NCBI GenBank assembly: GCA_045648925.1
Contig: JAZROY010000003.1
Span: 57,082-121,081, forward strand
Direction: 5' to 3'
Source: Candidatus Enterousia sp.
GTDB lineage: Bacteria > Pseudomonadota > Alphaproteobacteria > Rs-D84
DNA: 64,000 nucleotides
Shown: positions 47,245-64,000 of the stretch, one piece after another
How positions within the stretch are numbered: the first letter of the stretch is position 1
Layout: each line of letters starts with the position of its first letter
Program-made: the position numbers and the translations under genes
Notes under the pieces: generated by a model
The model's database searches: none
What the model was told of the DNA's origin: nothing
What the model saw: the letters and a program-made list of their open reading frames with translations, nothing else

Positions 47245-48145
47245 CTACCTTTCCTTTTATCCAATTATAAAAACCTTTTTCGATTTCTATATCCAGCGCA
47301 GAAAATTTTATTTTGTCTTTTGCCCAATCTGGGATACGCACCCAATCTTTTTCTGTGGTTAACAATCGTGCATTTTTCGATTTTGCTTTTTGAATCAACA
47401 AATTGATATCCGCATCACTATATTGATAATGGTCTGGGAAAGATATCTTTTCAACAACATTGCATGGTATGTTATCGAAAAACTTTTTTGGATACCCAAT
47501 CCCGGCAAACGCGATTACATTTACCTTTTTATCATATGGGCAACTTTCACTACTTTTTGCATTAAATATCGGAATATCTGTCGGCAAAGCAAAATTTCGC
47601 GCGACATTTTTTCTTTTTATCAATATAATCGCATCAGCGCGTTTAATCGCAGATTTCCCTTCGCGTAACGGTCCCGCAGGTAACAAAAAACCATTACCAA
47701 ACCCAATTGCTTCATCAAAAACCAGCACAGAAATATCTTTTTTTATAGAAGAATTTTGAAATCCATCATCCATAACAATCGGTGAATTTGATTTTTGTTT
47801 GTTTAATAAAATTAAATTACTTTTTCGATTCCCCACATGCACCAGAATACCATCATTTGACAACATTTTTGCTTCATCACCGACATAATCAGTTTGCTTG
47901 GAATTTTTATATCCCCGCATAACCACAGGAGAATTAAAAAACTTTGCTACTTCGCGCACAATGGGTGTTTTTCCAACCCCACCAGATAAAATATTACCGA
48001 AACAAATTACCGGTCGTCTTGATTTATATTCGCGCATTTTGCGAAAACCAAAGACAGTTTTCGATGCAATAAAATAAAACAAAGACAGTGGCAATAATAA
48101 AATCGCCATAAACCCGCGCTTTAAAAACCATTTTGGTGTTTTCAC
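47219..48145 (-). CDS. lpxK: Tetraacyldisaccharide 4'-kinase
   Basis: 308 aa; P-loop ICFGNILSGGVGKTP; N-terminal membrane anchor. Confidence 0.8.
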   Translation of the reverse strand: MKTPKWFLKRGFMAILLLPLSLFYFIASKTVFGFRKMREYKSRRPVICFGNILSGGVGKTPIVREVAKFFNSPVVMRGYKNSKQTDYVGDEAKMLSNDGILVHVGNRKSNLILLNKQKSNSPIVMDDGFQNSSIKKDISVLVFDEAIGFGNGFLLPAGPLREGKSAIKRADAIILIKRKNVARNFALPTDIPIFNAKSSESCPYDKKVNVIAFAGIGYPKKFFDNIPCNVVEKISFPDHYQYSDADINLLIQKAKSKNARLLTTEKDWVRIPDWAKDKIKFSALDIEIEKGFYNWIKGKVDDNINKKS

Positions 48146-48900
48146 AGTATCACCGCCCTATCTTTAAAATTGTCTGGGGTTAAATCTTGTTCAACCCGGA
48201 ATTTAGTAAATCTTTTATCCAAATCATATGCCTGTTTTACCATAACATCTTCAAGATTTTTACGAATTTTTTCAAAATCTTCGATTTTTGTTTTTCTATC
48301 GATAAATATAGGTTTTCCAACAGTTCCCGCGATAATAGAAAACGGTTTAGTCAACAAATATCTGTCCCATCGATTTTGGAACCACGGTCTGGACGAAGAA
48401 TAACAAACCGGAATTATCGGCGCACCAGTCATTTTCGCGAAATAAAGCGCACCATCATGAAACCGCATAGACGGTCCACACGGGCCATCTGGCGAAAGTG
48501 CCAGACAATTTCCACCGCGTTTAAGTGCCTCTACCCCCTTACGCAGAACAGACACCCCGCCCCCATCAGACGAACCGTATATGGTTTTAAGACCGAATAA
48601 CTTTTCCATTTTTGCGATTGCCCGCCCATCTTTCTTGGCATCAGCAATCGCATACCCGCGCACCCTGTTAAGAGCAATTACCGGCGACAACATCATTGTC
48701 CGTCCATGCCAAAACACGAAAATCGCGGGCTTTCTGGCATATTTTTTCAAAACGGATAAACCCGTAATATCTTTTTTAGATGTGAAATAAACGAACCAGA
48801 TTAAAACATAATAGACAATCGCCATAATCCACTGAACAACCCCCCAACCATATAGAAATCTGAAAAATCGTTTAAATCTTTTTGATATTGATTTTTTCAT
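48142..48900 (-). CDS. DUF374/lysophospholipid-acyltransferase-like protein (commonly lpxK-adjacent in alphaproteobacteria)
   Basis: 252 aa; N-terminal TM, FVFWHGRTMM..SPDGP motif region. Confidence 0.5.
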   Translation of the reverse strand: MKKSISKRFKRFFRFLYGWGVVQWIMAIVYYVLIWFVYFTSKKDITGLSVLKKYARKPAIFVFWHGRTMMLSPVIALNRVRGYAIADAKKDGRAIAKMEKLFGLKTIYGSSDGGGVSVLRKGVEALKRGGNCLALSPDGPCGPSMRFHDGALYFAKMTGAPIIPVCYSSSRPWFQNRWDRYLLTKPFSIIAGTVGKPIFIDRKTKIEDFEKIRKNLEDVMVKQAYDLDKRFTKFRVEQDLTPDNFKDRAVIL

Positions 48901-49366: not shown

Positions 49367-49699
49367 ATGAAACAAAAAAATATCACGACGCATATAACAA
49401 AAACCATTGCTGAACGAATAAAATTACGAAGAATTATGTTGGGTATGTCGCAATCTGATTTGGGAAAATTGTGCGGGGTTTCTTTTCAACAAATACAAAA
49501 ATACGAAAGCGGGCAAACCAGCATATCTTGCCAACGATTGTTTCAAATCAGCACTGCGCTAGGCACCCCTGTTGATTTTTTCTTTGATACACAAAACAAA
49601 ATGTATGGTTCGGAATCATTAAAATTATTGATTTTATATTGGAAATTACCACAAAATAAGAAAAAACTAATCTTTGAAATGGTAAAAAACATAAAATAA
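49367..49699 (+). CDS. XRE-family helix-turn-helix transcriptional regulator
   Basis: 110 aa; LRRIMLGMSQSDLGKLCGVSFQQIQKYESGQTSIS is a classic HTH_XRE. Confidence 0.75.
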   Translation: MKQKNITTHITKTIAERIKLRRIMLGMSQSDLGKLCGVSFQQIQKYESGQTSISCQRLFQISTALGTPVDFFFDTQNKMYGSESLKLLILYWKLPQNKKKLIFEMVKNIK

Positions 49700-50385: not shown

Positions 50386-51387
50386 TTAAACATCCAATTT
50401 ATTTTGATAATTCCAAGAATCACGACACATATCATCCAAAGAATATTCTGCAACCCATCCCAATACGCGTTTCGCTTTTTCTGGATTGGCATAGCACATC
50501 GCGACATCGCCGGGTCGCCGCGCTATAATTTCATACGGGATTTTTATCTTATTTACTTTTTCAAAGGTTTTTATTACATCCAATACAGAATATCCATGCC
50601 CTGTTCCCAGATTAAATATTTCCAAACCACACTTTTTATCAATCGCGAACATTGCGCACACATGCCCACGCGCCAAATCAACCACATGGATATAATCCCT
50701 GACGCCTGTGCCATCAGGTGTATCATAATCATTGCCATATACAAACAATTTTTCACGTTTTCCACACGCAACTTGGGTAATATAAGGCATCAAATTATTT
50801 GGGATACCGTTCGGGTTTTCACCAATCAAACCTGATGGATGTGCGCCAACAGGGTTAAAATAACGCAAAATAACAACATTCATATCTGGGTTTGCTTTTT
50901 GCATATCCACCAAAATTTGTTCTATCATATGTTTGGTCCAACCATATGGATTTGTACATATACCTTTTGGGCATTCTTCGGTAATCGGCACAAATGCAGG
51001 TATTCCATAAACAGTTGCACTGGACGAAAAAATAATATTTTTGCATCCTATTTCATTTAAAACATTTAACAAAGATATTGTCCCAGAAATGTTATTATCG
51101 TAATATTCAACAGGTTTAACCACAGATTCTCCGACAGCCTTTAACCCAGCAAAATGAATACAAGCGTCAATTTTGTACCCAGACAAGAAATTTTTTAATA
51201 CATCTTTATCGCGGATATCGATATTTGAAAATTCTATTTTTTTACCTGTAATTTTTTGAATATTATCCAAAACATTAATTGATGAATTACATAAATTATC
51301 TATACCAACGATATCAAAACCATTATTTTGCAATTCAACAATTGTATGCGAAGCAATAAATCCTGTGGCACCTGTTACTAGAATCAT
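50386..51387 (-). CDS. galE: UDP-glucose 4-epimerase
   Basis: 333 aa; MILVTGATGFIASH Rossmann motif, YxxxK, GalE-like throughout. Confidence 0.85.
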   Translation of the reverse strand: MILVTGATGFIASHTIVELQNNGFDIVGIDNLCNSSINVLDNIQKITGKKIEFSNIDIRDKDVLKNFLSGYKIDACIHFAGLKAVGESVVKPVEYYDNNISGTISLLNVLNEIGCKNIIFSSSATVYGIPAFVPITEECPKGICTNPYGWTKHMIEQILVDMQKANPDMNVVILRYFNPVGAHPSGLIGENPNGIPNNLMPYITQVACGKREKLFVYGNDYDTPDGTGVRDYIHVVDLARGHVCAMFAIDKKCGLEIFNLGTGHGYSVLDVIKTFEKVNKIKIPYEIIARRPGDVAMCYANPEKAKRVLGWVAEYSLDDMCRDSWNYQNKLDV

Positions 51388-51484
51388 TTTTTACCTTTTT
51401 ACTTGTCTTTCATCCTATTTTTGATTCAGCAGTAATTATCCATATCTATATCATACAAATCTATAACTATGTGGCCCAATAAAA

Positions 51485-51763
51485 TCAATCTAATCTGGTA
51501 AATTCTACATAAGTATATTCAGTATCATTTGTCATATCTGGTATTTTTGTTTTATCAAGACCGGACCAATCGACCCACTTTCCGCTTGATTCCAGAGCTT
51601 TTACATTCTGCACCCATTCTAAATCCGAAGGACATTTATAAACAATATGTGTAGATGTTTTTGCTATTCTTTCGCAATCGGTCATTGTGTTTTCTATATT
51701 TTTGCTATCATTATAACATCCGCCCAACACAAGAACAGGTAATATTAACAATAGAAATTTCAT
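51485..51763 (-). CDS. Small hypothetical lipoprotein
   Basis: 92 aa; lipobox VLGGCYN. Confidence 0.4.
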   Translation of the reverse strand: MKFLLLILPVLVLGGCYNDSKNIENTMTDCERIAKTSTHIVYKCPSDLEWVQNVKALESSGKWVDWSGLDKTKIPDMTNDTEYTYVEFTRLD

Positions 51764-51945
51764 AAAAACCCCTTTCGCTTATACTGGTAAGTATACTTTA
51801 AAATTTGTTTTTTCGCAATATGTATTTAACATGGGTCTATTAAATTCCGCATAAATTTTACATTCGATTACAAAAACATTCAAATTGGCATACAGCAAGT
51901 ATACATAATCAAAATCCTAAACCAAGGAATTTGATTATGTATTTT

Positions 51946-54900
51946 TTACAAAGTAGTCAACCAAGATAAATCTGATGAACACAATAATCCAAGTTGTTTA
52001 TCACTTTTATAAATTGCTTCTTTGAATAATATATTTTTTTCTGTTAATTTTGACTTTAACATTGACCAGGTTTCTTGTTCCCCTATACGATTCATATCAT
52101 CCAATAAAATTACAAAAGATTTATCCAGATTATCAACAATATCCAATATTTCTGGTCTGGAATAATGTGCACTACCCAAAGGTCCATCAATCATCACAAG
52201 ATTAAATTTTTTACCTTTGATAACTGATTCAAAACCTTTATAAGTTCTAGATTCATGCTCAGGAACAATATGTACCATTTCAGTATCCAAAATTTTTGTA
52301 TATTTATCAGCTGTGGGAAATTGAAGTTTAAAGAACGACAACCAATCTTGGTTATTTTCACAAATCATCAACTTTGCTTTATATGCATCAGCATATTGAA
52401 TTGTTAATTTAGAACTTTGACCAAGTCCACACTCTAATATAGATTGTGGTTTAATTTCATCTAGTATTCTAAACAAAACATATAAAACAATATACGACAC
52501 TGCCCAGCGACCAGGCGATACAGATTTATCTTTTAACCAAACGCTGTTTAATATAGTATCATGATAAACATTTGCCCAATAAGGTTCCATGTTTAATAAA
52601 GAAAATTTATGTTGAACATTGATAAAAAAATCTTGCATATTTTTCATACTAATTTCATGCTGTTTATTAATACAATCCAATTGTAAATTCAATTGCAAAT
52701 TCAATTCGTTAATATGCTTTTCCAACTTATCTATACTACTACGCGTGCTGTGAGAATACATAACTTGTTTTATATGTCTTCTAAATTTTGCCAAAGGCAA
52801 AGAAACAACATTCATCCATACGGTTGCGAGCAAGTAATACGGGAATAAAACATAACTTTTTACATGATTATCTTTGTACAAAAATGCTAATTTAGATTTA
52901 TCATATCGTTTTAATAAATGTTTCATATCTTTGATATATAACTTTTTATCTGTCTGATCCAGCTTTACAAAATCATTCACCAGAATTCCTAAATACGAAT
53001 TCACATAATTATTGAATGTTTTTTTATTTATTTTACACTGTTTCAAATACCCAAGAAGTATATCTGTTATTTTCAAAAAATCCGCAAAATGGTGATTCCG
53101 AGTTTGTGTTGTAGATTTAGGATGTAATCTACGACAATACAATTTCTCATTTAATATTCCACACGCAGATGCCTTGGTTAACCCTTTGACAAAGAAAACA
53201 TTGTCTTCGAAAAAAAGTTCTTCTGGAAATTGTAAATTATTTTTTTCTATAAAAGAATGTTTATAAATTGTTAAACATGTTGATACAGCCATTAAATGTG
53301 CAAAATCTAAACAATCTTTAAACGAAAAAACTGTCTTGTTCCAATTTTGTGGTAAATAATTAAAATCCCAAAGTTTATTTGGTTCCATAATATCTGTTCC
53401 ATCTTTAAAATTTCTACCACTGAACATCAACATATCTAAATTGTTTTTATTTGCATATGTATATAATTTTTCAATAGCATTTAATTGCAGATAGTCATCA
53501 GAATCTACAAATTGAATATAATGACCTTTGGCTATATTTAAAGCTTGATTTCTTGCAGTTCCTTGTTTTCTATTAACACGATTATCTATTACTTTTATTC
53601 TAGAATCTTTATCAGCATATTTTTTAATGATATTCAATGAATTATCTGTTGAACCATCATTTACACAGATAATTTCAATATTTTTCTCTGTTTGATTAAT
53701 AACAGAATCTAAACATTTTTCTAAATATTTTTCTGTATTATAAACAGGTATTATAACAGAAACTTTTACATCATAGGATTCATTGTTATTTGACTGTAAT
53801 ATTTTATTCTTTTCAATATATTCATTTGGATTATTCATAATCATTTGTAAATCAGACCATTGATTATTGTTGAAATATTTTTTATCAATATCACCATGTT
53901 TTTTGTGTTGTTTAAATTCTTTACCAATGGCTGTTAAATATTCCGGCCAATATTCAACATCCAAACGCGCAATCATATGATAAATATACGCATTAAATTT
54001 ACGCAAAAAATAAACAGGAAGCAATTTAGCCACTTTTTTATGTTTCGCAAATATATTATCAATAAAATGATATTCATTTGGAATTGTCCAAACATTATTC
54101 TTTTTCTTTATAGACTGATTTGGATTATCTTGGCGGTAACAATAAAATACACAGTTCATAAAATATACTTTATCTGCCAAATATGTTGTTTGTGCCCAAA
54201 AACCATTATCTTGATATGCAGCCCCAGGGGTTTCATTATGACGGATTTTATATTTATCCAAAAAGGAATGTTTAAATATTCCCGCTGGATTAATAGCAAA
54301 AATATACAATATTTTTTCATCTTTTTCGGGTGTTAAAACACGGTTATAAAAACTCTCTGGCGCATTAAATACTTTTTTATTTGTATATCTATATTGTTTG
54401 TTTTCACCTGTAAATTCACAATAATCAGCCTTGATAACATCCAAATCTAATTCTTTTGCCTTATTATATAATGTTTCATACATATCAGGTTTAATAAAAT
54501 CATCAGGTTCAACAATACCAATATATTCACCGCACGCTAAATCAATACCACAATTCATTGTTTGACCATAACCTGCATTTGGTTTATCGATATATTTAAC
54601 ACGTTTGTCTTTATCAGCATATTCTTTAATGATATTCAATGAATTATCTGTTGAACCATCATTAACACAAATAATTTCAATATCTTTTAATGTCTGATTA
54701 ACAACGCTGTCCAAACATTCACGTAAATAAGGTTCCGCATTATAAATTGGCAGAACAACTGAAACTTTTGGTGACTCTTTCATAATATCTTTTCGAAACA
54801 TATAAGATTTATCTGGCTCATAAAAATATTTTGTATCATATAAGTGACGATATATATCCAAATCATACACCAGTTTATTTTGTAAATCGTTTAAAAGTTT

Positions 54901-55845
54901 GCTTTTTACCTCTACATCTTTAATTGAATTGTAATTATATAAAGCTCCAGACAAAACACAATTTACAAAAGATTGTTCATAAATATCGTATATTTTCATC
55001 TTCTGTAATTCTTTCTTTACAGACATTGATGCTGTATACCAATCCAAAGGACTTTTATGGTTATTAGACTGTAAACTGCTATTATTTCCAACACGATAAT
55101 GCCCTAAACATTCTTGTATAACAGACATTCTTTTTGCTTTTACCAGTGCCATAAAGACAAAGTATAAATCATTTGTTCTTGATAAAGATTGAAAATACAA
55201 TTTATTAGCTTTAATAAAATTATGATTAAACATTTTATTCCATGGCCAACTACACGAAAAATTAAAAATGTATTTTGAAATATCTTGTGCAGAAAACACG
55301 TCATTATTTGGCATATACTTGTTTGACAGCAACCAATTTTGTGGGGAATATTTTTTTGAACCGGTATCATACGCATCTGTTCTATAAATAACAATATCCA
55401 AATTTTTGTTTGTCGCCAAAGAATATGCATTTTTTAACATATTTAACTCAAAAAAATCATCACTATCTAAAAAAGATAAATACTCACCTTTAGCAACAGC
55501 AAGACCTGCATTACGGGCAACACCAGCATATAAATTTTTTTGCGTAATAACTGTAATTCTATTATCTTTTTTTGCATATTCTTTCAATATTTCCAGAGAA
55601 TTATCAGTTGAACCATCGTCAACACAAATTATTTCAATGTCGTGTAAAGTTTGATTTACTATTGAATCTAAACATTCGCGCAAATATTGTTCAACATTAT
55701 AAACAGGAATAATCACAGAAACCTTTGGGATATAATCAATCTTGTTTTGAATCAAAATAGTAGCATCAGTATCTTTGATACCATCCGCATTTCGCACACT
55801 AATCATGGCATGTTTTTTTGTTTGCTTTGTTTCTGTTTTTTTCAT
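51946..55845 (-). CDS. Multidomain glycan synthase: three tandem GT2 glycosyltransferase modules + coiled-coil segment + C-terminal class-I SAM-methyltransferase-like domain
   Basis: 1299 aa. GT2 signature (VSV[IV]IPVYN.E.YL..CLDS..NQT...IE[IV]ICV[DN]DGSTDNSL.I[LI]KEYA.KD.R[IV]) occurs three times (~aa 43, ~365, ~694), each with a DxD downstream (LDSDD / VEPDD / VDSDD). Coiled coil SSIDKLEKHINELNLQLNLQLDCINKQ. C-terminal ILECGLGQSS...LVMIDGP resembles MTase motif I / post-I. Confidence 0.75.
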   Translation of the reverse strand: MKKTETKQTKKHAMISVRNADGIKDTDATILIQNKIDYIPKVSVIIPVYNVEQYLRECLDSIVNQTLHDIEIICVDDGSTDNSLEILKEYAKKDNRITVITQKNLYAGVARNAGLAVAKGEYLSFLDSDDFFELNMLKNAYSLATNKNLDIVIYRTDAYDTGSKKYSPQNWLLSNKYMPNNDVFSAQDISKYIFNFSCSWPWNKMFNHNFIKANKLYFQSLSRTNDLYFVFMALVKAKRMSVIQECLGHYRVGNNSSLQSNNHKSPLDWYTASMSVKKELQKMKIYDIYEQSFVNCVLSGALYNYNSIKDVEVKSKLLNDLQNKLVYDLDIYRHLYDTKYFYEPDKSYMFRKDIMKESPKVSVVLPIYNAEPYLRECLDSVVNQTLKDIEIICVNDGSTDNSLNIIKEYADKDKRVKYIDKPNAGYGQTMNCGIDLACGEYIGIVEPDDFIKPDMYETLYNKAKELDLDVIKADYCEFTGENKQYRYTNKKVFNAPESFYNRVLTPEKDEKILYIFAINPAGIFKHSFLDKYKIRHNETPGAAYQDNGFWAQTTYLADKVYFMNCVFYCYRQDNPNQSIKKKNNVWTIPNEYHFIDNIFAKHKKVAKLLPVYFLRKFNAYIYHMIARLDVEYWPEYLTAIGKEFKQHKKHGDIDKKYFNNNQWSDLQMIMNNPNEYIEKNKILQSNNNESYDVKVSVIIPVYNTEKYLEKCLDSVINQTEKNIEIICVNDGSTDNSLNIIKKYADKDSRIKVIDNRVNRKQGTARNQALNIAKGHYIQFVDSDDYLQLNAIEKLYTYANKNNLDMLMFSGRNFKDGTDIMEPNKLWDFNYLPQNWNKTVFSFKDCLDFAHLMAVSTCLTIYKHSFIEKNNLQFPEELFFEDNVFFVKGLTKASACGILNEKLYCRRLHPKSTTQTRNHHFADFLKITDILLGYLKQCKINKKTFNNYVNSYLGILVNDFVKLDQTDKKLYIKDMKHLLKRYDKSKLAFLYKDNHVKSYVLFPYYLLATVWMNVVSLPLAKFRRHIKQVMYSHSTRSSIDKLEKHINELNLQLNLQLDCINKQHEISMKNMQDFFINVQHKFSLLNMEPYWANVYHDTILNSVWLKDKSVSPGRWAVSYIVLYVLFRILDEIKPQSILECGLGQSSKLTIQYADAYKAKLMICENNQDWLSFFKLQFPTADKYTKILDTEMVHIVPEHESRTYKGFESVIKGKKFNLVMIDGPLGSAHYSRPEILDIVDNLDKSFVILLDDMNRIGEQETWSMLKSKLTEKNILFKEAIYKSDKQLGLLCSSDLSWLTTL

Positions 55846-55846
55846 T

Positions 55847-57013
55847 TTATTTCCCTATAATTTTATTAAATGTTTCAAACGCACCTTGGATTGTTCGATT
55901 CATATCATAATATCTGTATGCACCCAATCTGCCTAAGAAATATACATTTGATAATTTTTTTGCTTCTTCGAAATATCTATCATAAATTGCTTGGTTTGTT
56001 GGATTTAATATTGGATAAATTCGTTCGTTTTTGCCATTTTCAAAATCTTCTGGATATTCAAAAGTCAATACAGTTTTGTCTGATTTTTCATTTAAAAACC
56101 ATTTGTTTTCTGTAATTCTTGTAAAATCATAATTTTCAGGATAATTTACAACTGCAGCATTTTGAAAATGTGACACATTAAATGTTTCTATTCTTATATC
56201 CAAACTGCGATACGGTAATTTACCAAACTTGTAATCGAAATATTCTTCTATGGCGCCAGTATAAAATAGACGCTTGTATTTTATTGATTTTTTCAGTTTT
56301 TCAAAATTTGTATTCAACATTACACTTATATTTGGGTGTGCCAACATACGTTCAAACATCACAGTATAACCATCACGTGGAATTCCTTGAAACCGTTCTT
56401 GGAAATAACGACTATCGCGACCGATAAATACTGGGACAGAACCCGTAACAGATGGATCTAGTTGTTCTGGACTTAATCCCCATTGTTTAAGGGTATAGTT
56501 TAAAAATACTTTTTTATAAATGTAATCAGCCAAAAAGTTTAAATCTTCATCGTTTGTTTTACGTAATTCCAGAATAGGAACCTTGGTATTAAAACCAAAC
56601 TTTGCAATTAATTTTCCTTCTAATTTATTTGCCAAAGTTTCTGGCAACGCACGATGTAAAGAATCTAGATTAAACGGAATTGGAACTTCTATACCGTCAA
56701 TTATACCAAGAACGCGATGCATAAATGGATTCCAAGTCGTATATTTAGATAAAAAATTCCATACTTCTGTAGAATTAGTTCTGAAAATGTGGGGGCCATA
56801 TTTATGAACATGAATGCCTGTCTCATTGTCAATATAATCAAAACAAGTGCCGCCAATATGGTCTTTCTTGTCAATAATCACAACAGGTTCATTTAATTCC
56901 GTAGCGATTTTGTTTGCCATTACTATTCCAGATAACCCACACCCAACAATAAAATTCGTATTCTCATTTACAGAACTAGTATCTGATATGTATCTTACAT
57001 TTTGCTTTACCAT
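55847..57013 (-). CDS. glf: UDP-galactopyranose mutase
   Basis: 388 aa; FAD motif FIVGCGLSGIVMA, Glf-like throughout, canonical length. Confidence 0.85.
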   Translation of the reverse strand: MVKQNVRYISDTSSVNENTNFIVGCGLSGIVMANKIATELNEPVVIIDKKDHIGGTCFDYIDNETGIHVHKYGPHIFRTNSTEVWNFLSKYTTWNPFMHRVLGIIDGIEVPIPFNLDSLHRALPETLANKLEGKLIAKFGFNTKVPILELRKTNDEDLNFLADYIYKKVFLNYTLKQWGLSPEQLDPSVTGSVPVFIGRDSRYFQERFQGIPRDGYTVMFERMLAHPNISVMLNTNFEKLKKSIKYKRLFYTGAIEEYFDYKFGKLPYRSLDIRIETFNVSHFQNAAVVNYPENYDFTRITENKWFLNEKSDKTVLTFEYPEDFENGKNERIYPILNPTNQAIYDRYFEEAKKLSNVYFLGRLGAYRYYDMNRTIQGAFETFNKIIGK

Positions 57014-57195
57014 AACACAACCCCATCATTTACTATTTTTAATTTGTCTGATTTTATCTTTTAACCTGTGGTATTTATTGTGAACTTTTATTGGATATTT
57101 AAAAAATCTTAAATCACAAATATGTCTTATAAAATGCATGTTTGTTTCCTTTGTCTTATTTTCAGATTTTTTCATGCTTTAAACATTATTATGGG

Positions 57196-57224
57196 AATTT
57201 TAGCAATAAAAAATAAATAATGCA
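57196..57224 (-). promoter_or_regulatory. Candidate sigma70-type promoter (TTGCAT-17-TAAAAT) for the glf / multidomain GT operon
   Basis: Minus strand ttgcat (57224-57219), 17-nt spacer, taaaat (57201-57196), within a 317-bp AT-rich intergenic region upstream of glf. Confidence 0.35.
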
Positions 57225-57330
57225 AGCCGGCCGCAAAAACTATTTAACAATGAAAATTAAAGGTTTATACCGGGTTTATTCATACAATCAGTGTAATAAT
57301 TTGAACATAAAATACATATAAATTTTACAA

Positions 57331-58374
57331 CTATCTCTTATAACTTAAAATTTTTATTCCACAAAAATACACATGTATTCTACCATTTGAACAATATTCT
57401 TTTGCGAATAAGAAATTTCTTTTAATTACAGAATCTGGCGCAAAATGTAATTTATAACTAAGAAATTTTATTCCAAATATATAAAATTTATGGCGTCCAT
57501 TTATAAAAGTATGTTTAAAAACAAAACTTAATATATATCTAACAATACTTGTTTTAATTTGATAACAGTTATTATACTTGTCCCATAAAGCACTGCCAGG
57601 GGCACCCTCAGAATTCCAAGGTTTCTTTTTATTTGTTAAATGTAAAATTACAGGTTTTTTTAATATTTTTTCTATATCTTTTTCTTGATAAAAATCAGAA
57701 ATTTCATTGTCTGGATAATCTAAATTTTGTACCATACAATTATATTTCAAAGAAACATATATAACATTTTCATTAAACACCTGATTCAAAGCATCTTGGT
57801 CCATAAAGTGTTTATATTTATCATGTTTTTTTGCATAAAGTAATTTATCAGTACTATTATTTTCGCGCATTTTTTTTAAATTTAACAACATCATACCAGA
57901 ATTAAAATATTTATCTATCCCCAGTTTTAGATGATGTTTTTCATTAACCATTGCTTTCATATCAGTAACAACCGCAGCATATTTTCCATTTAAATTTGTA
58001 CTATACAAATCATATAAATCACCTAAAATTAACATATCTCCATCTAAATATAAAATTTTATCCAAATCCGGAAACATATTTGGTAAATTAAATTTTAACA
58101 TTGCGGCTTTACTTACATGCTGATGTGTTGTTTGAATATCAGAATAAATATTTTCAGTATTTATTACATATATATTTACATTGTGCTCTTTTAATTTCTT
58201 AAATTTATTTATTATCTTTTCAGCCACATCAACAGCAATAATATAGATATTATACATTGTGTCTTTTTTACAATTTTCAATCAAAGATTCAATAGCCACA
58301 CCCGTAGGAACCGCATAATTTGTATCAGTTATAAAACAAATATTTACTGTTCTTTTCATTTTTTTATTTTTCAT
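57331..58374 (-). CDS. Glycosyltransferase family 8 (LPS alpha-1,2/1,3-glycosyltransferase-like)
   Basis: 347 aa; N-terminal VNICFITDTNYAVPTGVAIESL, DxD (YLDGDMLILGD), HxxGxxKPW (HLTNKKKPW). Confidence 0.65.
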   Translation of the reverse strand: MKNKKMKRTVNICFITDTNYAVPTGVAIESLIENCKKDTMYNIYIIAVDVAEKIINKFKKLKEHNVNIYVINTENIYSDIQTTHQHVSKAAMLKFNLPNMFPDLDKILYLDGDMLILGDLYDLYSTNLNGKYAAVVTDMKAMVNEKHHLKLGIDKYFNSGMMLLNLKKMRENNSTDKLLYAKKHDKYKHFMDQDALNQVFNENVIYVSLKYNCMVQNLDYPDNEISDFYQEKDIEKILKKPVILHLTNKKKPWNSEGAPGSALWDKYNNCYQIKTSIVRYILSFVFKHTFINGRHKFYIFGIKFLSYKLHFAPDSVIKRNFLFAKEYCSNGRIHVYFCGIKILSYKR

Positions 58375-59293
58375 AAGTTTTTATAATATCAGATATTGTT
58401 TGTTGTAATGTATATTTTTGATTCCATCCTAATTCTTTTTTTAATTTAGTGTTATCCCCAATAACCGAAGAAATTTCGTTAGCACGAATACGCGATGAAT
58501 CTATAATTATATTTGGTTTGATATTTAATTCCTTTGCAGTTGTGTTTATTATATCGCGCAATTTAACCCCTTGACCACTGCATACATTATAAACACTGCG
58601 ATTTTGCGCATTTTTAATTATTAAATAATACGCATTAACAACATCACGAACATCTGTAAAATCACGAACCACATCAATATTACCAACCATCATTTTATTT
58701 TCGCTTTTTCCTTTTGATATATTCACCAACTGTTCAATAAAAGATGGTATAACAAAACGAGTATTTTGACGCGGACCAATATGATTAAAAGAACGTGTCA
58801 TTACAATATCCATATTAAAATTATCAACATATAATTTTGACATATATTCTTGTGATAAACGAGCAACTGAATACGGACTTTTTGGATGTAAATTTAAATC
58901 TTCAGTCATTGGGTTATCATATATTCCGTATTCTTCAGACGAACCAACAGATAAAATTCTTGTTTTTAATTTATTATTACGCACAGCATCAGCCAAATTC
59001 AAAAATGCCGACATATTATTCATAAAACAATTTGCTGGTTCTTTCCAACTTTGTGCCACAGAAGACATAGCAGCTAAATGAACAATATAATCAGGTTTCA
59101 AAGACCTTACTATCCTGTTTACCTGTTCATTATCCATCAGATTCAAAGATCTGTATTTAATATTCATGTCACATTTTGGTGTTATATCAATTCCATATAT
59201 TTTTGATTCAGGTTCTTTTTCATTAAGATATTCTACAAAATATCTTCCAACAAAGCCCATAACACCTGTTATTAAATACTTACTCATATACAC
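58364..59293 (-). CDS. rmd: GDP-4-dehydro-6-deoxy-D-mannose reductase (Rmd-like, GDP-D-rhamnose forming)
   Basis: 309 aa SDR; GVMGFVGRY, YSVARLSQEY; block-wise similarity to Pseudomonas Rmd (RSFNHIGPRQ..FVIPSF, GNIDVVRDFTDVRDVVNAY, VYNVCSGQGVKLRDII); adjacent to gmd. Confidence 0.65.
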   Translation of the reverse strand: MYMSKYLITGVMGFVGRYFVEYLNEKEPESKIYGIDITPKCDMNIKYRSLNLMDNEQVNRIVRSLKPDYIVHLAAMSSVAQSWKEPANCFMNNMSAFLNLADAVRNNKLKTRILSVGSSEEYGIYDNPMTEDLNLHPKSPYSVARLSQEYMSKLYVDNFNMDIVMTRSFNHIGPRQNTRFVIPSFIEQLVNISKGKSENKMMVGNIDVVRDFTDVRDVVNAYYLIIKNAQNRSVYNVCSGQGVKLRDIINTTAKELNIKPNIIIDSSRIRANEISSVIGDNTKLKKELGWNQKYTLQQTISDIIKTYEK

Positions 59294-59301
59294 TACCTTT
59301 A

Positions 59302-60351
59302 TTATCTTTGAGGTTGTTTCAGCGTTTTTTCCATTTTTACCAATTTTAAATCTTCAGCAACCATTTCTTGTGCCAAAGTTTTCCAAGTATATGTTGGTTT
59401 CCAGCCCAATTGAGTTCTTGCCTTTGTTGAATCACCTAATAACAAATCAACTTCGGCTGGACGGAAGAATTGTGGGTCCACAGCGACAACAGTTTTACCA
59501 GTTTTTTTATCAACTGCCTTTTCATTAACACCATTGCCAGACCATTCTAAATCAAAACCAGCTTCTTTAAAAGCAACCTTTACAAAATCACGAATAGATG
59601 TAGTAACACCTGTGGCCAAAACATAATCCGATGGTTTTTCTGCTTGTAATATACGCCACATACCTTCGACATAATCTTTGGCATGACCCCAATCGCGTTT
59701 GGAATCCATATTCCCAAGATATAAACAATCTTGAAGACCTTCTTTGATTCTGGCTGCTGCTAATGTAATTTTGCGTGTCACAAAATTATCACCGCGTCTT
59801 GGACTTTCATGATTAAACAAAATACCATTGCACGCAAATATGCCATAAGATTCACGATAATTCACAGTAATCCAATAACCATATAATTTAGCCACACCAT
59901 ACGGAGAACGCGGATAAAACGGTGTTTTTTCAGACTGAATTGGTTCTTGAATTAAACCAAATAACTCAGATGTAGATGCCTGGTAAAATCTTGTTTTTTT
60001 ATCCAACCCATTTGTATGGATTGCCTCTAATAAACGCAAAACACCAATCGCGTCAGATTCTGCAGTAAATTCTGGACAATCCCATGATATTTTAACATGT
60101 GATTGTGCAGCCAAATTATAAACTTCATCTGGTTGTAATTGACGAACTAAATTATTTAAATTTGTAGAATCTGTCATATCACCATAATGCAAATGTATTT
60201 TATCAGATATATGGTCTATTCTTTGTGTATTCGGTACAGAAGCACGACGAACAATACCATGAACTTCATAACCTTTACCCAATAACAATTCTGCCAAATA
60301 TGAACCATCTTGTCCTGTAATACCTGTAATCAAAGCAACTTTTTTTGTCAT
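59302..60351 (-). CDS. gmd: GDP-mannose 4,6-dehydratase
   Basis: 349 aa; [38 protein letters not shown] is the canonical Gmd N-terminus; YGVAKLY catalytic motif. Confidence 0.9.
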
Positions 60352-60368
60352 ATCCTACCTTTTTATTA

Positions 60369-61616
60369 TTAATTTTCCTGATTAATTGTTTTTATGATTA
60401 TATCAACTGTATTTTCCCAAGAAAACAGTCCACTCCTTTTTAAACCTTTCTTTGCCATTTCGTCACGATATTTTTTATCCATATAATATTTTTCATATGC
60501 AGCGATATGTTGTTCATCACTGTCCCAATCTATCATAATTCCAGCATCACCAACAACCTCTGGCAAAGATGAATTATTTGATGTAATTACCGGACATCCA
60601 CACTTCATTGCTTCCAATGGTGGCAAACCAAAACCTTCGTATTGACTGGTATAAACAAAAAATTCTGCACCACTATAAAGTGCAGCCAAATCTTCATCAT
60701 CTATATAACCAGCACGAATAATTTTATCTTTATATTTACCCAAATCTTTTATCTCTTGTTCTAATTTACCAATAAATTCATCCCAATGCGCACCACCAAG
60801 AACAAATACCATATCATCAATTTTATTCTTTTTGATAAATTCTATAAATGTCTTAACAGCACGAATCAAATTTTTACGTGGCTCTAATGTACATAAACTG
60901 AATACATATTTTTTATCTGTTGGTATATTATATTTTTTACAAACTTGTTTTATTTTATTTTTATCTTTTTCTTGATAAAAATTATCACTTGCTGCCAATG
61001 GCATAATAGTTATATCATCTGGATTCATATTTAATAATCTAACAAAATCATTTTTACAAGATTGCGATATAGCAAAATATTTACAGTTTGGTTTAGATTT
61101 AATATATTTTATCAAGTGATAAAACCAATGTTGTTTTGATAAATAATATTCTGGAATTAACAAAGGTATTGTATCATATAAAACAATATATTTATGTGTT
61201 GCTTTCACTTTTTTAGACATATATGTCCATGCGGAAAAAGCAATATCAAAAGTCGGTAATTTAACAAATTTTCCAATAAATCTTACAGGTTTTCTAACGA
61301 GTATATTTAACAGTAATTTTAAAATATTATGTTTTTTATTACGCAATTTTGCATCTAAAACTTGCATTTTTGCCAAAAACATTCCACAACGATTGCCAAA
61401 ATAAATTTTAACATTTTCCCCAAAATTATTTTTTATAAAATTTGCAAATTTTTCATTATACATAGTATCACAATACAAAGATACATCAAATTCATTAGAT
61501 TTAAAAATATGTTTTAATATATTAAATTCTGTAAAAAATATCCCTGTTCTACCACGTTCTGCCATATAACTTTCAGCAATAATAGTCGCATCAAAAAGTA
61601 ATGTTTTATTTTTCAT
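60369..61616 (-). CDS. Glycosyltransferase family 4
   Basis: 415 aa; [20 protein letters not shown]4 (GT-B) signature. Confidence 0.75.
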
Positions 61617-61624
61617 ATCAATAC

Positions 61625-62635
61625 CTATTTTTCAAACTCACTTTTGTTTGGGAATTTTGTTTCAAAAAATTGTCTATTATGTTCATATGTTTCTTTTGTA
61701 GAATAAATACTGTCATTTATACAAACAACTGGCGCTTTACAAGATAAAACATTTGACTTGATTGCATCATTACAGAAAAATACTGAATTTTTTATAGATT
61801 TATAATTAACCAAATTATACAAAAAATCTAAAATAATATTATGTCCAACATGTTTTGAATGAGAAACAATTACATCTGCACGATTTTTTACAACATCGTA
61901 CAAATTAAAAACCAACCGATGAACATCATTTTCATCACGAAAACGATGATATTTTGTATTGTCTATATATTTCGAAAGTATTGGATGTTCACAACACTCT
62001 TTTATTGAAGATTTTATATATGGGTCAATACCATGCGAAGATTTATATTGATATAAATCAATACTAAAAACATCTTCAATAGCATGTGCTGAATTTATCA
62101 ATAATTTTAAATATATACTCTTTTCATCACGAAGATGCTTGCCATTTTTTCGCCGTATACAACGAAACTTTGCGCGTCCATTTTTATTAAAAAAATAATC
62201 TGGTTTAATCGGTTTATTAAAAAACATATCATCATTAGATAATAAAAAATATTCTGATAAATTTGGAATATTTGCAAGACATGCCTCAACTGCACAAGAA
62301 TTAAATATTGGACCAGCGTCCGATGGTAAAATAGATTCTTGGGGAACAATTGTAATTTTTGGATTTTTTGTATCCAACCAAGATGGAATCTGACCCAAAG
62401 CAGTCACAATATAAATATGATTTATCCATGGCGCATTTTGCTCTATTGAACGCAAAGAATATTTTAATTCATCATTATCACGAAAAATTTCATCCCTGAC
62501 ATCATCAACATATTTATTTGTATCTTTTTTACTTTCTTTTAAATATTTATTTTTTTCTGAATTAAACTTGGCATCACGGCTATCCACCCACAAATAAACA
62601 ATATCTATTGGAAAAATACTATTCATTTTAGTCAT
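61625..62635 (-). CDS. Stealth-family protein (capsular polysaccharide hexose-1-phosphoryltransferase family)
   Basis: 336 aa; CR1 IDIVYLWVDSRDAKF, CR2 NDELKYSLRSIEQNAPWINHIYIVT, CR3/CR4-like downstream blocks. Confidence 0.65.
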   Translation of the reverse strand: MTKMNSIFPIDIVYLWVDSRDAKFNSEKNKYLKESKKDTNKYVDDVRDEIFRDNDELKYSLRSIEQNAPWINHIYIVTALGQIPSWLDTKNPKITIVPQESILPSDAGPIFNSCAVEACLANIPNLSEYFLLSNDDMFFNKPIKPDYFFNKNGRAKFRCIRRKNGKHLRDEKSIYLKLLINSAHAIEDVFSIDLYQYKSSHGIDPYIKSSIKECCEHPILSKYIDNTKYHRFRDENDVHRLVFNLYDVVKNRADVIVSHSKHVGHNIILDFLYNLVNYKSIKNSVFFCNDAIKSNVLSCKAPVVCINDSIYSTKETYEHNRQFFETKFPNKSEFEK

Positions 62636-62699
62636 ATTAAACCTATTTGAACCACAGGCTAGGATTTTAGACTATAAAATACGATAAATCAAGTATTTA

Positions 62700-62740
62700 T
62701 AAGAAAAACACCCCTTCCGGGGTGTATTTTTATTTTTAAT
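62700..62740. terminator. Intrinsic terminator separating the tail-fibre-like genes from the glycan operon
   Basis: acacccc-ttcc-ggggtgt hairpin with T/A runs on both sides; sits just downstream (minus sense) of the 118-aa gene stop. Confidence 0.6.
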
Positions 62741-63092
62741 CTGTTAAATAAGGAATTTTTTTCTTTATTTCTTTAATTTTTTCATTTCGTTCAAATATTA
62801 AATTATTAATTTTTTTTATAACTTCCTCTGTTTGTTCTTCATCACGCAAACGGCTGATATGCGCTGTAATTGGGTCAATTTCTGTTAAGTATGCTTGCGC
62901 CCGTTTTTCACTCTGTTCTTCTTGCGTTGGTGCTGGTATATCTGATAACAACAAATATTCACCATTATATGCGCCAAAATCTGATATCGTATGCTCTGTA
63001 TCTTCGACCACTTTATCTTTTATTAAACAGAAAAACTTATTATCTGTATCAGATATTGCTATGATTTTACTATCTTTTATTGCTTTATACAT
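62736..63092 (-). CDS. Small protein resembling phage tail-fibre assembly chaperones (Tfa / Caudo_TAP-like), tentative
   Basis: 118 aa; ...ISDFGAYNGEYLLLSDIPAPTQEE... resembles the Tfa N-terminal segment; lies immediately downstream of a tail-fibre-like gene. Confidence 0.35.
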   Translation of the reverse strand: MYKAIKDSKIIAISDTDNKFFCLIKDKVVEDTEHTISDFGAYNGEYLLLSDIPAPTQEEQSEKRAQAYLTEIDPITAHISRLRDEEQTEEVIKKINNLIFERNEKIKEIKKKIPYLTD

Positions 63093-63104
63093 AACTTTAC
63101 TCCT

Positions 63105-64000
63105 TTATATTGCGCCTTGGGCATATACAAATTTAAAAACAACAGTGCTTCCTGCCAAGTTATATTCTACTTTGAAAGTTTCGCCATTTTTAACTGGGAT
63201 ATAGCCGGCTATATAACCACCAGATGTTGCTGATTTATTAACAACCTGTATATTACTGCCATACAACACAAAATATTGCCCCACAGCAGTAGCATCTTTT
63301 CTAAAATAAACATAACCATCAGCAGGTGCTGTATAACTATTTCCACTTGCACCAAGGGTTAAATCAATATATTTACCACTTGGCATTGATTGATGCACGA
63401 TAAAATTTGTGTCATTATAATCTAGTGAACGAAACGCTTGCTTTGGTATAAATTCTCCTGTTATAGAATTAAAATAACATATTGTTGCACCAACTATTAT
63501 CTGTTCTGCACCTTGAGCTGTCATAGTATTATACAATATATTTTCAGACGGTTTGTACCATGCTTTATAATTTGTTCCAGGGTATGTTTCTTGACTATAT
63601 TCTCTATATAAGAAATAAGATAAACCATTATTAGTTATCGCAACAGTATAACCCAAATTACTTGTAAGATTATTTATTGTTTTTACAGTCGTAATTTCAA
63701 CAACAGTATTATTTAATGTTCCATCGGTATTTCTACCATTAGGTGCTATACCTTTTACACCCGGTAAAACAAACAATGTTGAACCAATATAACCAAAACC
63801 GTTAAAAATTTTATCAATAGATGTAATTTTACCACCTGATACAGTGATAACCGCCAAAGGTAAAGAATATGTGTCTGGTAAAGTTGAATAATTATATGTT
63901 GTTGTTAAAATTGTTGATAATGTTGAACCGTTGTATACGGCAAAATATATGCCATTCGTCGTTTGTGTTGTTGTTAAATCTGATGTTATTAAAACACTTG
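63105..64000 (-). CDS. Partial CDS (C-terminal region; gene continues past window end): beta-rich Ser/Thr/Tyr/Asn/Gly-rich protein resembling phage tail-fibre / receptor-binding proteins
   Basis: The frame of the 250-aa ORF stays open upstream of its TTG (63857) to 64000 (...TTQTTNGIYFAVYNGSTLSTILTTTYNYSTLPDTYSLP-LAVITVSGG...); low-complexity G/S/T/N/Y beta-strand composition; followed by a Tfa-like gene. Confidence 0.4.
   Translation of the reverse strand, partial: SVLITSDLTTTQTTNGIYFAVYNGSTLSTILTTTYNYSTLPDTYSLPLAVITVSGGKITSIDKIFNGFGYIGSTLFVLPGVKGIAPNGRNTDGTLNNTVVEITTVKTINNLTSNLGYTVAITNNGLSYFLYREYSQETYPGTNYKAWYKPSENILYNTMTAQGAEQIIVGATICYFNSITGEFIPKQAFRSLDYNDTNFIVHQSMPSGKYIDLTLGASGNSYTAPADGYVYFRKDATAVGQYFVLYGSNIQVVNKSATSGGYIAGYIPVKNGETFKVEYNLAGSTVVFKFVYAQGAI

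Follow-up and report, generated by a model that had tools for sequence, protein, structure and literature searches.

A two-gene fibre cassette beside a glycan island

The 3′ part of a fibre gene and, directly after it, a small gene for a 118-aa protein lie at the end of the 64,000-nt stretch of DNA analysed here (the window), whose host is a Candidatus Enterousia-like alphaproteobacterium of the order Rs-D84, a reduced-genome gut bacterium (Table 1). The initial annotation took the fibre frame to be the last ~300 codons of a longer gene. Indeed, the frame, open from the window edge (63998) onwards, ends in a TAA codon at 63105–63107 and comprises 297 residues and the stop, i.e. 298 codons, and the near-identical contigs L001, L002, and L004 carry 93 codons more, which gives a complete protein of 391 aa. 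Over the fibre stretch these contigs are 99.94% (L002, L004) and about 99.8% (L001) identical to the window. The gap of 12 nt between the fibre gene and the 118-aa gene suggests that the two are co-transcribed. A strong terminator had been annotated ahead of the polysaccharide operon, and the hairpin found there has 7 base pairs, 5 of them G–C, with a folding energy of −14.3 kcal/mol. A promoter-like site follows it, which suggests that the fibre unit and the downstream glycan operon are transcribed separately. The terminator hairpin also scores as a terminator on the plus strand.

Table 1. Features of the fibre cassette and its surroundings (positions in the window)
Feature	Position	Strand	Basis or remark
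Fibre gene, 3′ part (codons 94–391 and stop)	63105..64000	−	Open frame
Fibre gene, first 93 codons (Mtd_N domain), and leader	about 280–410 nt past the window edge	−	L001/L002
AGGAG ribosome-binding site of the 118-aa gene	63100..63104	−	Directly past the fibre stop, read from the sequence
118-aa partner gene	62736..63092	−	ORF
Intrinsic terminator: ACACCCCGGAAGGGGUGU followed by UUUUCUU	62708..62725	−	Closes the two-gene unit; scan on the identical L002 sequence
Promoter-like TTGATT-17-TAAAAT of the downstream glycan operon	62664..62692	−	Mapped from L002 9179–9207; consensus match only
Variable glycan (LPS/O-antigen-type) island	50386..62635	−	The cassette belongs to the island
Conserved island flank: DUF374, LpxK, LpxC (lipid A/Kdo genes)	46315..48900	−	

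The island codes for Stealth and GT4 proteins, a GDP-mannose dehydratase, an epimerase, a GT8 protein, a UDP-galactopyranose mutase, a 1299-aa triple GT2 protein, a 92-aa ORF, and a further epimerase. Its lipid A/Kdo flank is 72–81% identical to that of the Candidatus Enterousia locus L009, and is also present in L010 and L076. The statement that the window holds no other phage genes was confirmed by Pfam searches on about 40 ORFs, which returned housekeeping and glycan functions (RuvABC, MnmE, UvrB, AspRS, GyrB, FtsQ/A, LpxK/C, type IV pilus, and glycan enzymes). The 7.8 kb upstream of the fibre gene, available in L002 from the same strain, contain ychF, sufBD, virB4, and dnaG. Neither the window nor these 7.8 kb contain an integrase, capsid, portal, terminase, or baseplate gene adjoining the cassette, or att-like repeats. 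The cassette stands without a surrounding prophage.

The fibre is a phage-type receptor-binding protein

Glycine, serine, threonine, asparagine, and tyrosine make up 47% of the fibre part in the window, against 26% in eight other window proteins, which agrees with the composition given in the initial annotation. The tail-fibre character proposed there is also upheld, by a domain lying just outside the window: PF18454 (Mtd_N) is found on the 391-aa fibre and on most full-length homologues. It is the sole Pfam family recorded for the complete fibre, and the DUF2793 domain of Rcc00171 is absent. The AF2 model (pLDDT 87.7) matches Mtd best (PDB 1yu0–1yu4) and also C1q/TNF-like heads, so that the protein starts with an Mtd_N tail-docking domain, continues in a beta-rich shaft, and ends in a C1q/TNF-like head (about residues 300–391). 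Many of the 646 homologues lie within phage tail modules, where they come last among the structural genes (L007, L008 after baseplate J, L077, L099, and L100); phage homologues of the fibre and of the 118-aa protein alike occupy the distal end of the tail module, immediately ahead of the lysis genes. The window gene is a phage-type receptor-binding fibre of the trimeric type.

The resemblance to Mtd raised the candidate of a DGR-diversified target, which was rejected. Mtd of Bordetella phage BPP-1 ends in a C-type-lectin fold that is DGR-diversified, whereas the C-terminus here is a C1q/TNF-like jelly roll. The window holds no template repeat, the fibre gene sharing no repeat >43 nt with any other part of it, and none of the roughly 40 annotated window ORFs codes for a reverse transcriptase.

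The N-terminus, MSRQIQIRRGT..., is Mtd_N itself, with no signal peptide and no recognisable export or anchor signal, and Pfam detects no adhesin or translocator domain on the fibre. Among the related fibres two N-terminal types occur, Mtd_N and a T7 gp17-N-like domain (PF03906, weak match), and neither carries such a signal. Of the observations that the initial annotation had named as pointing away from a phage module, upstream sequence free of phage structural genes was found, but a large protein of an autotransporter or other non-phage adhesin family was not.

Fibre ORFs are intact, at 379–596 aa, in 14 of 15 diverged loci, the exception being L024 with 308 aa, and dN/dS across loci at 50–56% identity is 0.1–0.4 (all <0.45). 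These ratios indicate that the fibre is under purifying selection and presumably functional, in genomes that show no accumulation of pseudogenes (PMC12306168). Conservation is uneven along the cassette: its ends (the leader with the N-domain, and the C-terminal half of the small protein) are conserved and its centre is variable. Chromosomal Mtd_N copies are 70–80% identical over their first 60 residues, against 40–45% over the heads. Compared with the sampled phages, chromosomal fibre N-domains are only about 48% identical, and the 118-aa protein is 62–69% identical to phage copies.

A small partner protein follows the fibre

The 118-aa protein consists of a variable N-terminal beta domain (residues 1–50) and a conserved C-terminal helical hairpin (57–83 and 89–112), with an AF2 pLDDT of 93. 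It has 314 homologues at 60–75% identity, and members of the family lie directly downstream of fibre genes in phages L007, L099 (twice), and L101. It had been annotated as a Tfa-like chaperone, and this position is in line with that proposal, since Caudo_TAP proteins (PF02413; lambda Tfa, P2 gpG, Mu U′) are likewise encoded by a small gene directly downstream of a fibre gene. Both are also modular, with one conserved and one variable half; here it is the N-half that varies and the C-half that is conserved. The likeness in sequence is marginal: 4 of 55 family members match PF02413 at E ≤ 0.05, the best at 0.0014, which is below threshold, and the window protein itself has no match.

Structural comparison did not add to this. 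For the fold of a beta domain plus a helical hairpin, Foldseek against the PDB gave no match at E < 1, to solved Tfa structures or others, and returned generic helical hairpins only; an assignment to Tfa by fold was rejected. A profile search of PDB sequences gave nothing relevant. The families that the protein matches best are phrog_2432, 2687, and 5714, all without assigned function, with phrog_2432/2687 matched by 50 of the 55 members. phrog_188 is matched by two members of the family, and by the window protein weakly (E 0.048). Weak matches to PinA (PF10465, 27/55) and phrog_2167 (16/55), with a best E of 1e-3, were set aside as helical-hairpin noise. The 118-aa protein is a probable assembly or specificity partner of the fibre, while membership in the Tfa family, judged from these profile matches, is unproven.

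A predicted promoter and two predicted tandem terminators precede the fibre gene

A conserved leader precedes the island cassettes. In it, a near-consensus extended −10 promoter is followed by two tandem hairpin/U-tract terminators and then by a ribosome-binding site, and SD-proximal U/A pairing is present as well. In L002 the promoter (TTGATT-17-TG-TAAAAT) lies at 7472–7500 and a predicted terminator at 7545–7561. We collected 32 distinct leader copies, in which each of the two hairpin positions is occupied by 22–23 different sequences. A MAFFT and RNAalifold consensus of the leaders gave no pairs, as hairpins of differing sequence were not aligned in register. The structure was therefore judged by per-sequence folding together with in-register stem counts, and two stable hairpins followed by U-tracts were obtained in all 14 leaders folded (z = −2.7 to −6.4). 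No known RNA family came near its gathering score. Both the leader promoter and termination at the leader hairpins are predictions from sequence.

The leader is closely tied to fibre genes. Searching metagenomes with the leader DNA alone yielded 19 further leaders, all ahead of fibre-type genes, and among those loci of at least 3.8 kb, 10 of 12 had glycan genes. In about 1.3 Mb screened, every instance but one of the extended −10 promoter with tandem terminators lay upstream of a fibre gene. The remaining one, in L036, precedes an operon that encodes a 216-aa protein and, as judged by eye from the sequence, a DUF488-like protein and a cytosine methyltransferase. This non-fibre operon suggests that the leader may be a more general silencing device. 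IMG/VR scans with two leader patterns gave one match (L123, the same element as L105) and zero, respectively, and with the promoter alone the scan found 21 generic AT-rich promoters, all of them lacking tandem terminators.

The same architecture occurs in phage settings, before a fibre–holin–lysozyme operon (L105/L123) and before a fibre gene that belongs to a true temperate prophage (L124 19073–19203). L124 and L074 represent temperate podophage clusters ending in fibre genes in related gut Alphaproteobacteria; both carry repressor and terminase genes and have the appearance of ordinary prophages. The strikingly conserved L074 capsid was considered as a GTA signature and rejected, as the S24 repressor, terminase, and portal in its surroundings mark an ordinary temperate podophage; this capsid has 5105 homologues, the top 120 at 65–79% identity.

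One explanation for an orphan fibre of this kind is co-option to the cell surface, as an adhesin or lectin for attachment to a partner cell or for anchoring to the cell's own LPS, with the small protein as its folding partner. It would then resemble the chimeric (MAT) fibres of Bdellovibrio, e.g. Bd2133, which are displayed on the predator's own surface. Purifying selection without a prophage nearby and the conserved residence in a surface-glycan island fit this explanation, as does the biology of the host, since Rs-D84 bacteria have genomes of about 0.75–1.0 Mb, lack standard transporters, and have been proposed to depend on a partner (PMC12306168). Nevertheless, we judge a surface fibre unlikely. 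Unlike in the Bdellovibrio proteins, both N-terminal types are of the virion-docking kind and lack any export or anchor signal, and they are the best conserved part of the protein. Moreover, a strong promoter followed by two terminators would be odd for a structural surface protein, and in one element the same leader drives a fibre together with holin and lysozyme.

The cassette is a conserved resident of glycan islands

The module was sought in related genomes, as the initial annotation had proposed, and was found in or beside an LPS/glycan island in at least 15 of them, with varying position and orientation (island-associated loci include L001, L009, L010, L011, L015, L019, L024, L026, L027, L043, L054, L075, and L076). 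Leader-positive loci had glycan markers within 6 kb in 12 of 15 cases and phage markers in none (0/15), while glycan markers accompanied 8 of the 55 leader-negative loci (odds ratio 23.5, p = 3.6e-6); these counts come from related genomes, with some markers drawn from the same loci, and do not represent independent events. The gene pair and its leader are kept across genomes whose housekeeping proteins are only 72–82% identical. Together, these results point to a conserved, separately regulated unit of the glycan island, whose adjacency is not coincidence.

The island itself is recombining at the strain level: one breakpoint lies at about 62200, within the Stealth gene, and a GMD-plus-epimerase insertion/deletion distinguishes strains. 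Two strains with different glycan genes beside the cassette have fibres that are about 99.8% identical, which speaks against a close match between fibre and glycan at the level of strains.

Such a recombination hot spot could also be a mere landing site, in which the cassette is a phage moron that arrives repeatedly, for instance via shared glycan-modifying genes, and has no host function, being transient or a host-range reservoir for phages. On this account the fibre units of local temperate podophages are autonomous promoter–terminator cassettes, which matches the identical architecture inside prophage L124, the varying position and orientation in the island, and the conserved ends with a variable centre expected from swapping by homologous recombination. 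It accords poorly with the absence of phage markers from all leader-positive loci and with intact ORFs and a conserved leader in more than 30 loci of strongly streamlined genomes (PMC12306168). The chromosomal N-domains, in addition, group together as a conserved set apart from the phage copies, which suggests vertical maintenance, and we regard a functionless passenger as distinctly unlikely.

The initial annotation left undecided between a prophage remnant, a tailocin or GTA module, and a co-opted adhesin, and the conserved, separately regulated cassette is evidence against the first. Both genes have phage homologues, and elsewhere an orphan fibre with its chaperone is a common type of remnant, e.g. 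in the cryptic prophages of E. coli. A decaying remnant that is functionless and lacks regulation of interest is, however, largely refuted by the conservation of pair and leader at this phylogenetic distance, by dN/dS values below 0.45, and by flanks free of phage genes, integrase, and att-like repeats over the window and the 7.8 kb upstream; we give it hardly any weight.

Comparison with known systems and proposed explanation

The closest precedent, by analogy, is the RcGTA tail fibre gene rcc00171. [quoted passage not shown] It is, like the gene described here, a phage-derived fibre gene of an alphaproteobacterium that stands alone adjoining polysaccharide genes, and it shares with the cassette fibre a fast rate of evolution and homologues in prophages (PMC5026251, PMC10218006). 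The likeness seen is one of arrangement; Rcc00171 carries DUF2793 where cassette fibres have an Mtd_N or T7-type N-domain. A small partner gene and a promoter-plus-tandem-terminator leader, both present here, are not reported for rcc00171 in the available text (PMC5026251, PMC10218006). The hosts differ as well, R. capsulatus having a known GTA cluster, of which none was seen in about 72 kb of the roughly 0.9 Mb genome here, a size itself unlike that of R. capsulatus.

For the leader, the nearest parallel is antitermination in GTA loci, in which a constitutive promoter is followed by a terminating leader (bioRxiv 10.1101/2024.11.20.624540; PMC11150451). The units controlled by Q, BrrG, and GafYZ have the same form, a near-consensus, apparently constitutive sigma-70 promoter and then a terminating leader, which in those systems precedes late structural or lysis genes (bioRxiv 10.1101/2024.11.20.624540, PMC11150451). 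They have one long leader controlling a whole late operon, whereas here two short tandem terminators within about 90 nt would control a single fibre gene with or without its partner. The parallel is drawn from the leader sequence, with no antiterminator recognised: no conserved gene adjoins the leaders, none was recognised among the window ORFs, and the roughly 72 kb of this genome at hand contain neither an antiterminator gene nor a particle-encoding cluster.

We tentatively propose that the cassette is a free-standing, phage-derived receptor-binding module, maintained as its own transcription unit in the glycan island, gated by antitermination, and mounted on particles; we put the probability of this reading at roughly 0.4. 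The unit would be transcribed constitutively and stopped in the leader, and would hence be off by default. A processive antiterminator of the lambda Q, Bartonella BrrG, or Caulobacter GafYZ type, supplied in trans by a resident or infecting phage-like element, would switch it on. The lack of a secretion signal and the retention of a virion-docking N-domain suggest that the fibre would then be mounted on particles encoded elsewhere and freed by lysis, with its head binding the kind of surface glycan that the adjoining island specifies.

The same switch could serve anti-phage defence, with the fibre acting as a decoy: the late antiterminator of an infecting phage would induce the host fibre, which would compete for baseplate docking and leave progeny mistargeted or non-infective for kin. 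In this regard, the promoter-plus-tandem-terminator leader is common to phage fibre units, docking domains are conserved while heads diverge, the island specifies likely phage receptors, and a further leader drives the methyltransferase-containing, defence-like operon. The small protein is close enough to its phage copies to indicate that phage and host pools are in contact, yet the chromosomal N-domains are much more distant from those of the sampled phages. We know of no experimental precedent for a host-encoded decoy fibre. The RcGTA precedent offers the simpler reading, and we hold a decoy to be very unlikely.

A further speculation, distinctly unlikely at present, is that host-encoded fibre cassettes in the glycan islands of gut Rs-D84 Alphaproteobacteria, silent until a phage-type late antiterminator passes the double-terminator leader, let the host choose the receptor-binding protein on particles made in its cells. 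If so, progeny of an infecting phage might be retargeted or disarmed, a kind of fibre sabotage that protects kin, or alternatively a GTA-like particle might be fitted to the glycan type of the strain itself. In either case glycan locus and virion tropism would be connected in both regulation and function, in a way not previously described.

Significance

Orphan tail-fibre genes are usually dismissed as prophage debris. That the same cassette and control region are kept in the islands of many species with genomes below 1 Mb makes an active role likely. What is new is the conserved residence of the cassette in or beside a glycan island and its conserved promoter/double-terminator leader. The extended −10 promoter, two terminators, and fibre gene form a DNA signature by which further cassettes can be found, and the leader is a ready test object for antitermination in a lineage without genetics. 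If the proposed mechanism holds, a glycan receptor locus and a receptor-binding protein, which both drive phage–host arms races, would be combined in one island and tied to phage-like late antitermination, and the R. capsulatus GTA precedent of a fibre gene beside EPS genes would extend to uncultured gut Alphaproteobacteria.

Chromosomal setting of the fibre gene

The initial annotation had described a phage tail-fibre-like gene, a 118-aa ORF and a terminator abutting the glycan locus, and this description is correct, as the open frame, the 118-codon ORF and the terminator hairpin were all found on the minus strand of the window. The fibre frame is 47% G, S, T, N and Y, compared with 26% for eight other window proteins. 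The Stealth gene of the neighbouring glycan operon has its own promoter-like site 5' of it.

Positions of the cassette (fibre and partner genes), its leader and the glycan island
Feature	Locus	Position	Strand	Remarks
Fibre open frame	window	window edge to TAA at 63105-63107	minus	297 residues
AGGAG, 5' of 118-codon ORF	window	63100-63104	minus	
118-codon ORF	window	63092 to 62736	minus	starts twelve bases past fibre stop
G+C-rich hairpin + U-tract ending gene pair	window	62708-62725	minus	7 pairs, 5 G-C, -14.3 kcal/mol
Leader	L002	7472-7590		~280-410 nt past window position 64000, outside window
Glycan island	window	50386-62635	minus	flanked by DUF374-LpxK-LpxC
Cassette in island	window	upstream end		adjoining ychF
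Cassette in island	L076, L027, L011	mid-locus		
Cassette in island	L009, L010, L075	downstream end		adjoining DUF374-lpxK-lpxC

The complete fibre gene was read from L001, a contig ~99.8% identical to the window over the cassette, from L002, which comes from the same strain as the window, and from L004 (L002 and L004 at 99.94% identity across the 1.7 kb in common). It encodes only 391 aa, with the N-terminus MSRQIQIRRGT..., and the full-length protein contains Pfam PF18454 (Mtd_N). The identical 118-aa protein is recorded on 14 contigs. The sequence beyond 64000, 5' of the fibre gene, carries ychF, a SufBD-family gene, a lone virB4, dnaG and topA in these near-identical contigs, and no phage genes. 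The remaining window is ordinary chromosome, with RuvABC, MnmE, UvrB, AspRS, GyrB, FtsQ/A, type IV pilus genes, DUF374-LpxK-LpxC, glycan enzymes and three AMP-binding paralogues. The closest genomes are Candidatus Enterousia MAGs, to one of which LpxC, T2SSE and DUF374 are ~80% identical. This genus belongs to the order Rs-D84, with genomes of 0.75-1.0 Mb that show no pseudogene accumulation and for which a partner-dependent lifestyle has been suggested (PMC12306168).

Several further genes are of separate interest. A few kb from the cassette, the interval from dnaG to sufBD holds the lone VirB4/TrbE-type ATPase and a 207-aa gene (L001 3603-6020; L002 2376-4793), and in the related locus L027 the same virB4 adjoins the glycan island. 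The three tandem AMP-binding paralogues (acyl/aryl-CoA ligase-type, 526-529 aa; 5735-10561, minus) are notable for a genome under 1 Mb. In a single 594-aa ORF (24409-26193, plus), an FtsA-like domain is joined to a full ribulose-phosphate 3-epimerase domain; this is an unusual fusion or else reflects a missed stop or frameshift. The sole other mobile-element-flavoured gene in the window encodes a GIY-YIG-like T5orf172/MUG113 domain, typical of mobile or defence contexts (17466-18170, minus), and adjoins tRNA-Gly and tRNA-Tyr (16922-17104).

The fibre and its partner protein

The phage affinity of the fibre is borne out by its Mtd_N domain and by homologues in phage tail modules. At least 646 proteins belong to the family, and some of them start with a different phage docking domain (e.g. 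PF03906, T7 tail fibre N; PF21939). In phages of 36-53 kb, members close the set of structural genes; others follow baseplate J in a myovirus-like genome or occur in a ~93-kb sheath-bearing phage. The AlphaFold model, for which 93 homologues were used, has high confidence (pLDDT 87.7) and predicts a C-terminal C1q/TNF-like jelly roll, resembling the receptor-binding heads of lactococcal phages, BclA and the fibre tip of Bdellovibrio Bd2133. No export signal was found in the fibre, and the N-domain is its best conserved part, at 70-80% identity among chromosomal copies versus 40-45% for the heads. We separately considered a diversity-generating retroelement (DGR) target and rejected it, as the fibre lacks a lectin fold, the window holds no template repeat, and no reverse transcriptase occurs among the scanned ORFs.

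The 118-aa protein has 314 homologues at 60-75% identity and is therefore better conserved than the fibre. Its N-half comes in two types and its C-half is conserved; in the model (pLDDT 93) a helical hairpin comes after a small beta domain. Phage copies always lie 3' of the fibre gene and 5' of the lysis genes, and one phage bears two tandem fibre-partner pairs. Based on gene position, we regard the protein as the fibre's partner, probably an assembly factor. The earlier label of a Tfa-like chaperone draws its support from this adjacency in phages. The link to the Tfa family is marginal, with Caudo_TAP matched in 4/55 members, phrog_188 in 2/55 and no fold match for the model, and we do not class the protein there.

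Residence in a variable glycan island

Diverged relatives of the cassette (fibres 36-52% identical) in other Enterousia-like genomes occupy the same kind of site, with no phage genes nearby. We scored 70 non-redundant fibre loci for the leader (promoter, two tandem terminators and ribosome-binding site) by regular expression, and for glycan markers within 6 kb. Glycan markers accompanied 12/15 leader-positive loci, or 6/9 once six leader-bearing loci that had supplied some of the markers were excluded, and phage markers none of the 15. Among the 55 loci scored negative, a class that includes genuine or variant leaders missed by the expression (L015 has a leader; L040, L050 and L053 have promoter variants), glycan markers were found in 8 and phage markers in 27. 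The association of leader and glycan markers has an odds ratio of 23.5 (p = 3.6e-6) across these 70 loci, whose genomes are related.

The island recombines and is mosaic at strain level (60383-62200, 58348-60383). Between the window and L001, the near-identity of the cassette falls to ~65-85% within the Stealth gene at ~62200, the GT4 proteins share 72% identity, and the window has GMD (GDP-mannose dehydratase) and an epimerase that L001 lacks. Chromosomal fibre ORFs are 379-596 aa long in 14/15 examined (308 aa in L024), with dN/dS of 0.1-0.4 at dS near saturation. Plain decay of a prophage is essentially excluded. Of the initial reading, a phage fibre stands and a prophage remnant is unlikely.

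An XRE/Cro-type HTH_3 protein (49367-49699, plus) at the border of the island and DUF374-lpxK is 56% identical to its counterpart at the same border in the Enterousia locus L009 (12985-13296) and is a possible local regulator. A ~350-aa protein recurs beside the cassette (L009 11661-12716; homologues in L010, L075, L076, L013, L015 and L026) and is absent from the window; it has a membrane anchor at its N-terminus and two DUF7024-like beta-sandwich repeats.

A double-terminator leader

Every chromosomal copy examined has the same order of elements: promoter, hairpin 1, hairpin 2, Shine-Dalgarno. The promoter reads TTGATT/TTTATT, 17 nt, TG-TATAAT (extended -10); hairpin 1 with its U-tract starts ~10 nt past it, and hairpin 2 with its U-tract follows ~9 nt later. 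Pairing of the second U-tract with an A-rich stretch before the Shine-Dalgarno (TTTTGTTATAACAAAAGGAG) is possible in many copies. Two hairpins were obtained in 14/14 folded leaders (z-scores -2.7 to -6.4), and 32 distinct leaders hold 22-23 different hairpin sequences at each position, so it is the structure of the leader that is conserved, not its sequence. The leaders also hold palindromes, e.g. TTTTGTTATAACAAAA, which could be operators. The leader is not represented in Rfam.

Across ~1.3 Mb of comparison DNA and the window, the extended -10 with tandem terminators occurs only 5' of fibre genes, with one exception. In L036 (15732-18414) it precedes genes for a 216-aa unknown protein and, as assigned by eye from sequence, a 141-aa DUF488-like protein and a 425-aa DNA cytosine methyltransferase-like protein, suggesting that the leader may gate further accessory or defence-type genes. 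A metagenome scan by leader DNA alone (TATAAT, 60-90 nt, TTGTTATAACAAAAGGAG) gave 20 matches, 19 with the whole leader. In all 19, the next gene starts MQKVSYMGNG..FNFPYF, resembling the T7 gp17 N-terminal docking domain (PF03906 E 8e-4, below threshold), and glycan genes lay alongside in 10/12 loci of at least 3.8 kb.

Related units in phages

Leader-type units also occur in phages. In L105 (2637-7555; = L123), a contig classed as viral by IMG/VR, the leader drives an 801-aa fibre, two small genes, a holin, an HNH gene and a phage lysozyme; further on are phage-type helicase and HNH genes, and glycan-type genes adjoin. A second case is the true temperate prophage L124 of a gut alphaproteobacterium; it encodes an S24 repressor, terminase, portal, capsid and SU10-like adaptor. 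In front of its distal fibre-like gene (YadA_stalk) come TTGACA-17-TAATAT, two hairpin/T-run elements and a ribosome-binding site, and a promoter and then a terminator lie 5' of its terminase operon. Phages of the host group thus appear to be where the cassette design is native, and the chromosomal cassettes are such units that have become detached from a phage. A selfish phage unit landing repeatedly in a recombination hot spot would agree with the modular ends but sits badly with conservation in streamlined genomes.

Temperate podophages in which a fibre of the present family is the final structural gene are widespread in gut Alphaproteobacteria MAG chromosomes (L074 707-12399, L020, L055, L056, L059, L071, L073, L124). 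Their 321-aa capsid protein is unusually conserved, with 5105 homologues, the best 120 of 5105 at 65-79% identity.

Proposed mechanism and alternatives

In the model we propose, the hairpins, as predicted terminators, would end most transcripts from the strong promoter. The RNA preceding hairpin 1 is too short to form an alternative structure, and read-through would therefore depend on a factor acting on RNA polymerase, such as lambda Q, Bartonella BrrG or Caulobacter GafYZ. In those systems a constitutive promoter and a terminating leader control late or GTA genes (bioRxiv 10.1101/2024.11.20.624540; PMC11150451). Neither an antiterminator gene nor a particle cluster was found in the ~72 kb of genome read. 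The absent export signal and the best-conserved virion-docking N-domain suggest that the fibre may be loaded onto particles whose genes lie elsewhere, with release through lysis. A self-displayed adhesin would agree with the proposed partner-dependent lifestyle but is difficult to square with the docking domains, the absent export signal and the leader.

The head of the fibre would bind a surface glycan, and the nearest precedent is rcc00171, the tail fibre gene of the R. capsulatus GTA. It is located directly 3' of EPS genes and far from the GTA cluster, is fast-evolving, has homologues in prophages and encodes a capsule-binding product (PMC5026251, PMC10218006). Against the model stand the non-fibre operon of L036 and the lack of co-variation of the fibre with neighbouring glycan genes between the two strains. 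The leader and location would also agree with a host decoy sabotaging progeny phage, for which we know of no precedent.

We found no description of the glycan-island residence or the double-terminator leader in the literature searched. The cassette belongs with the stand-alone receptor-binding loci of phage-like elements, a known kind, and its interest lies in two new aspects, the conserved residence in glycan islands and the double-terminator leader.
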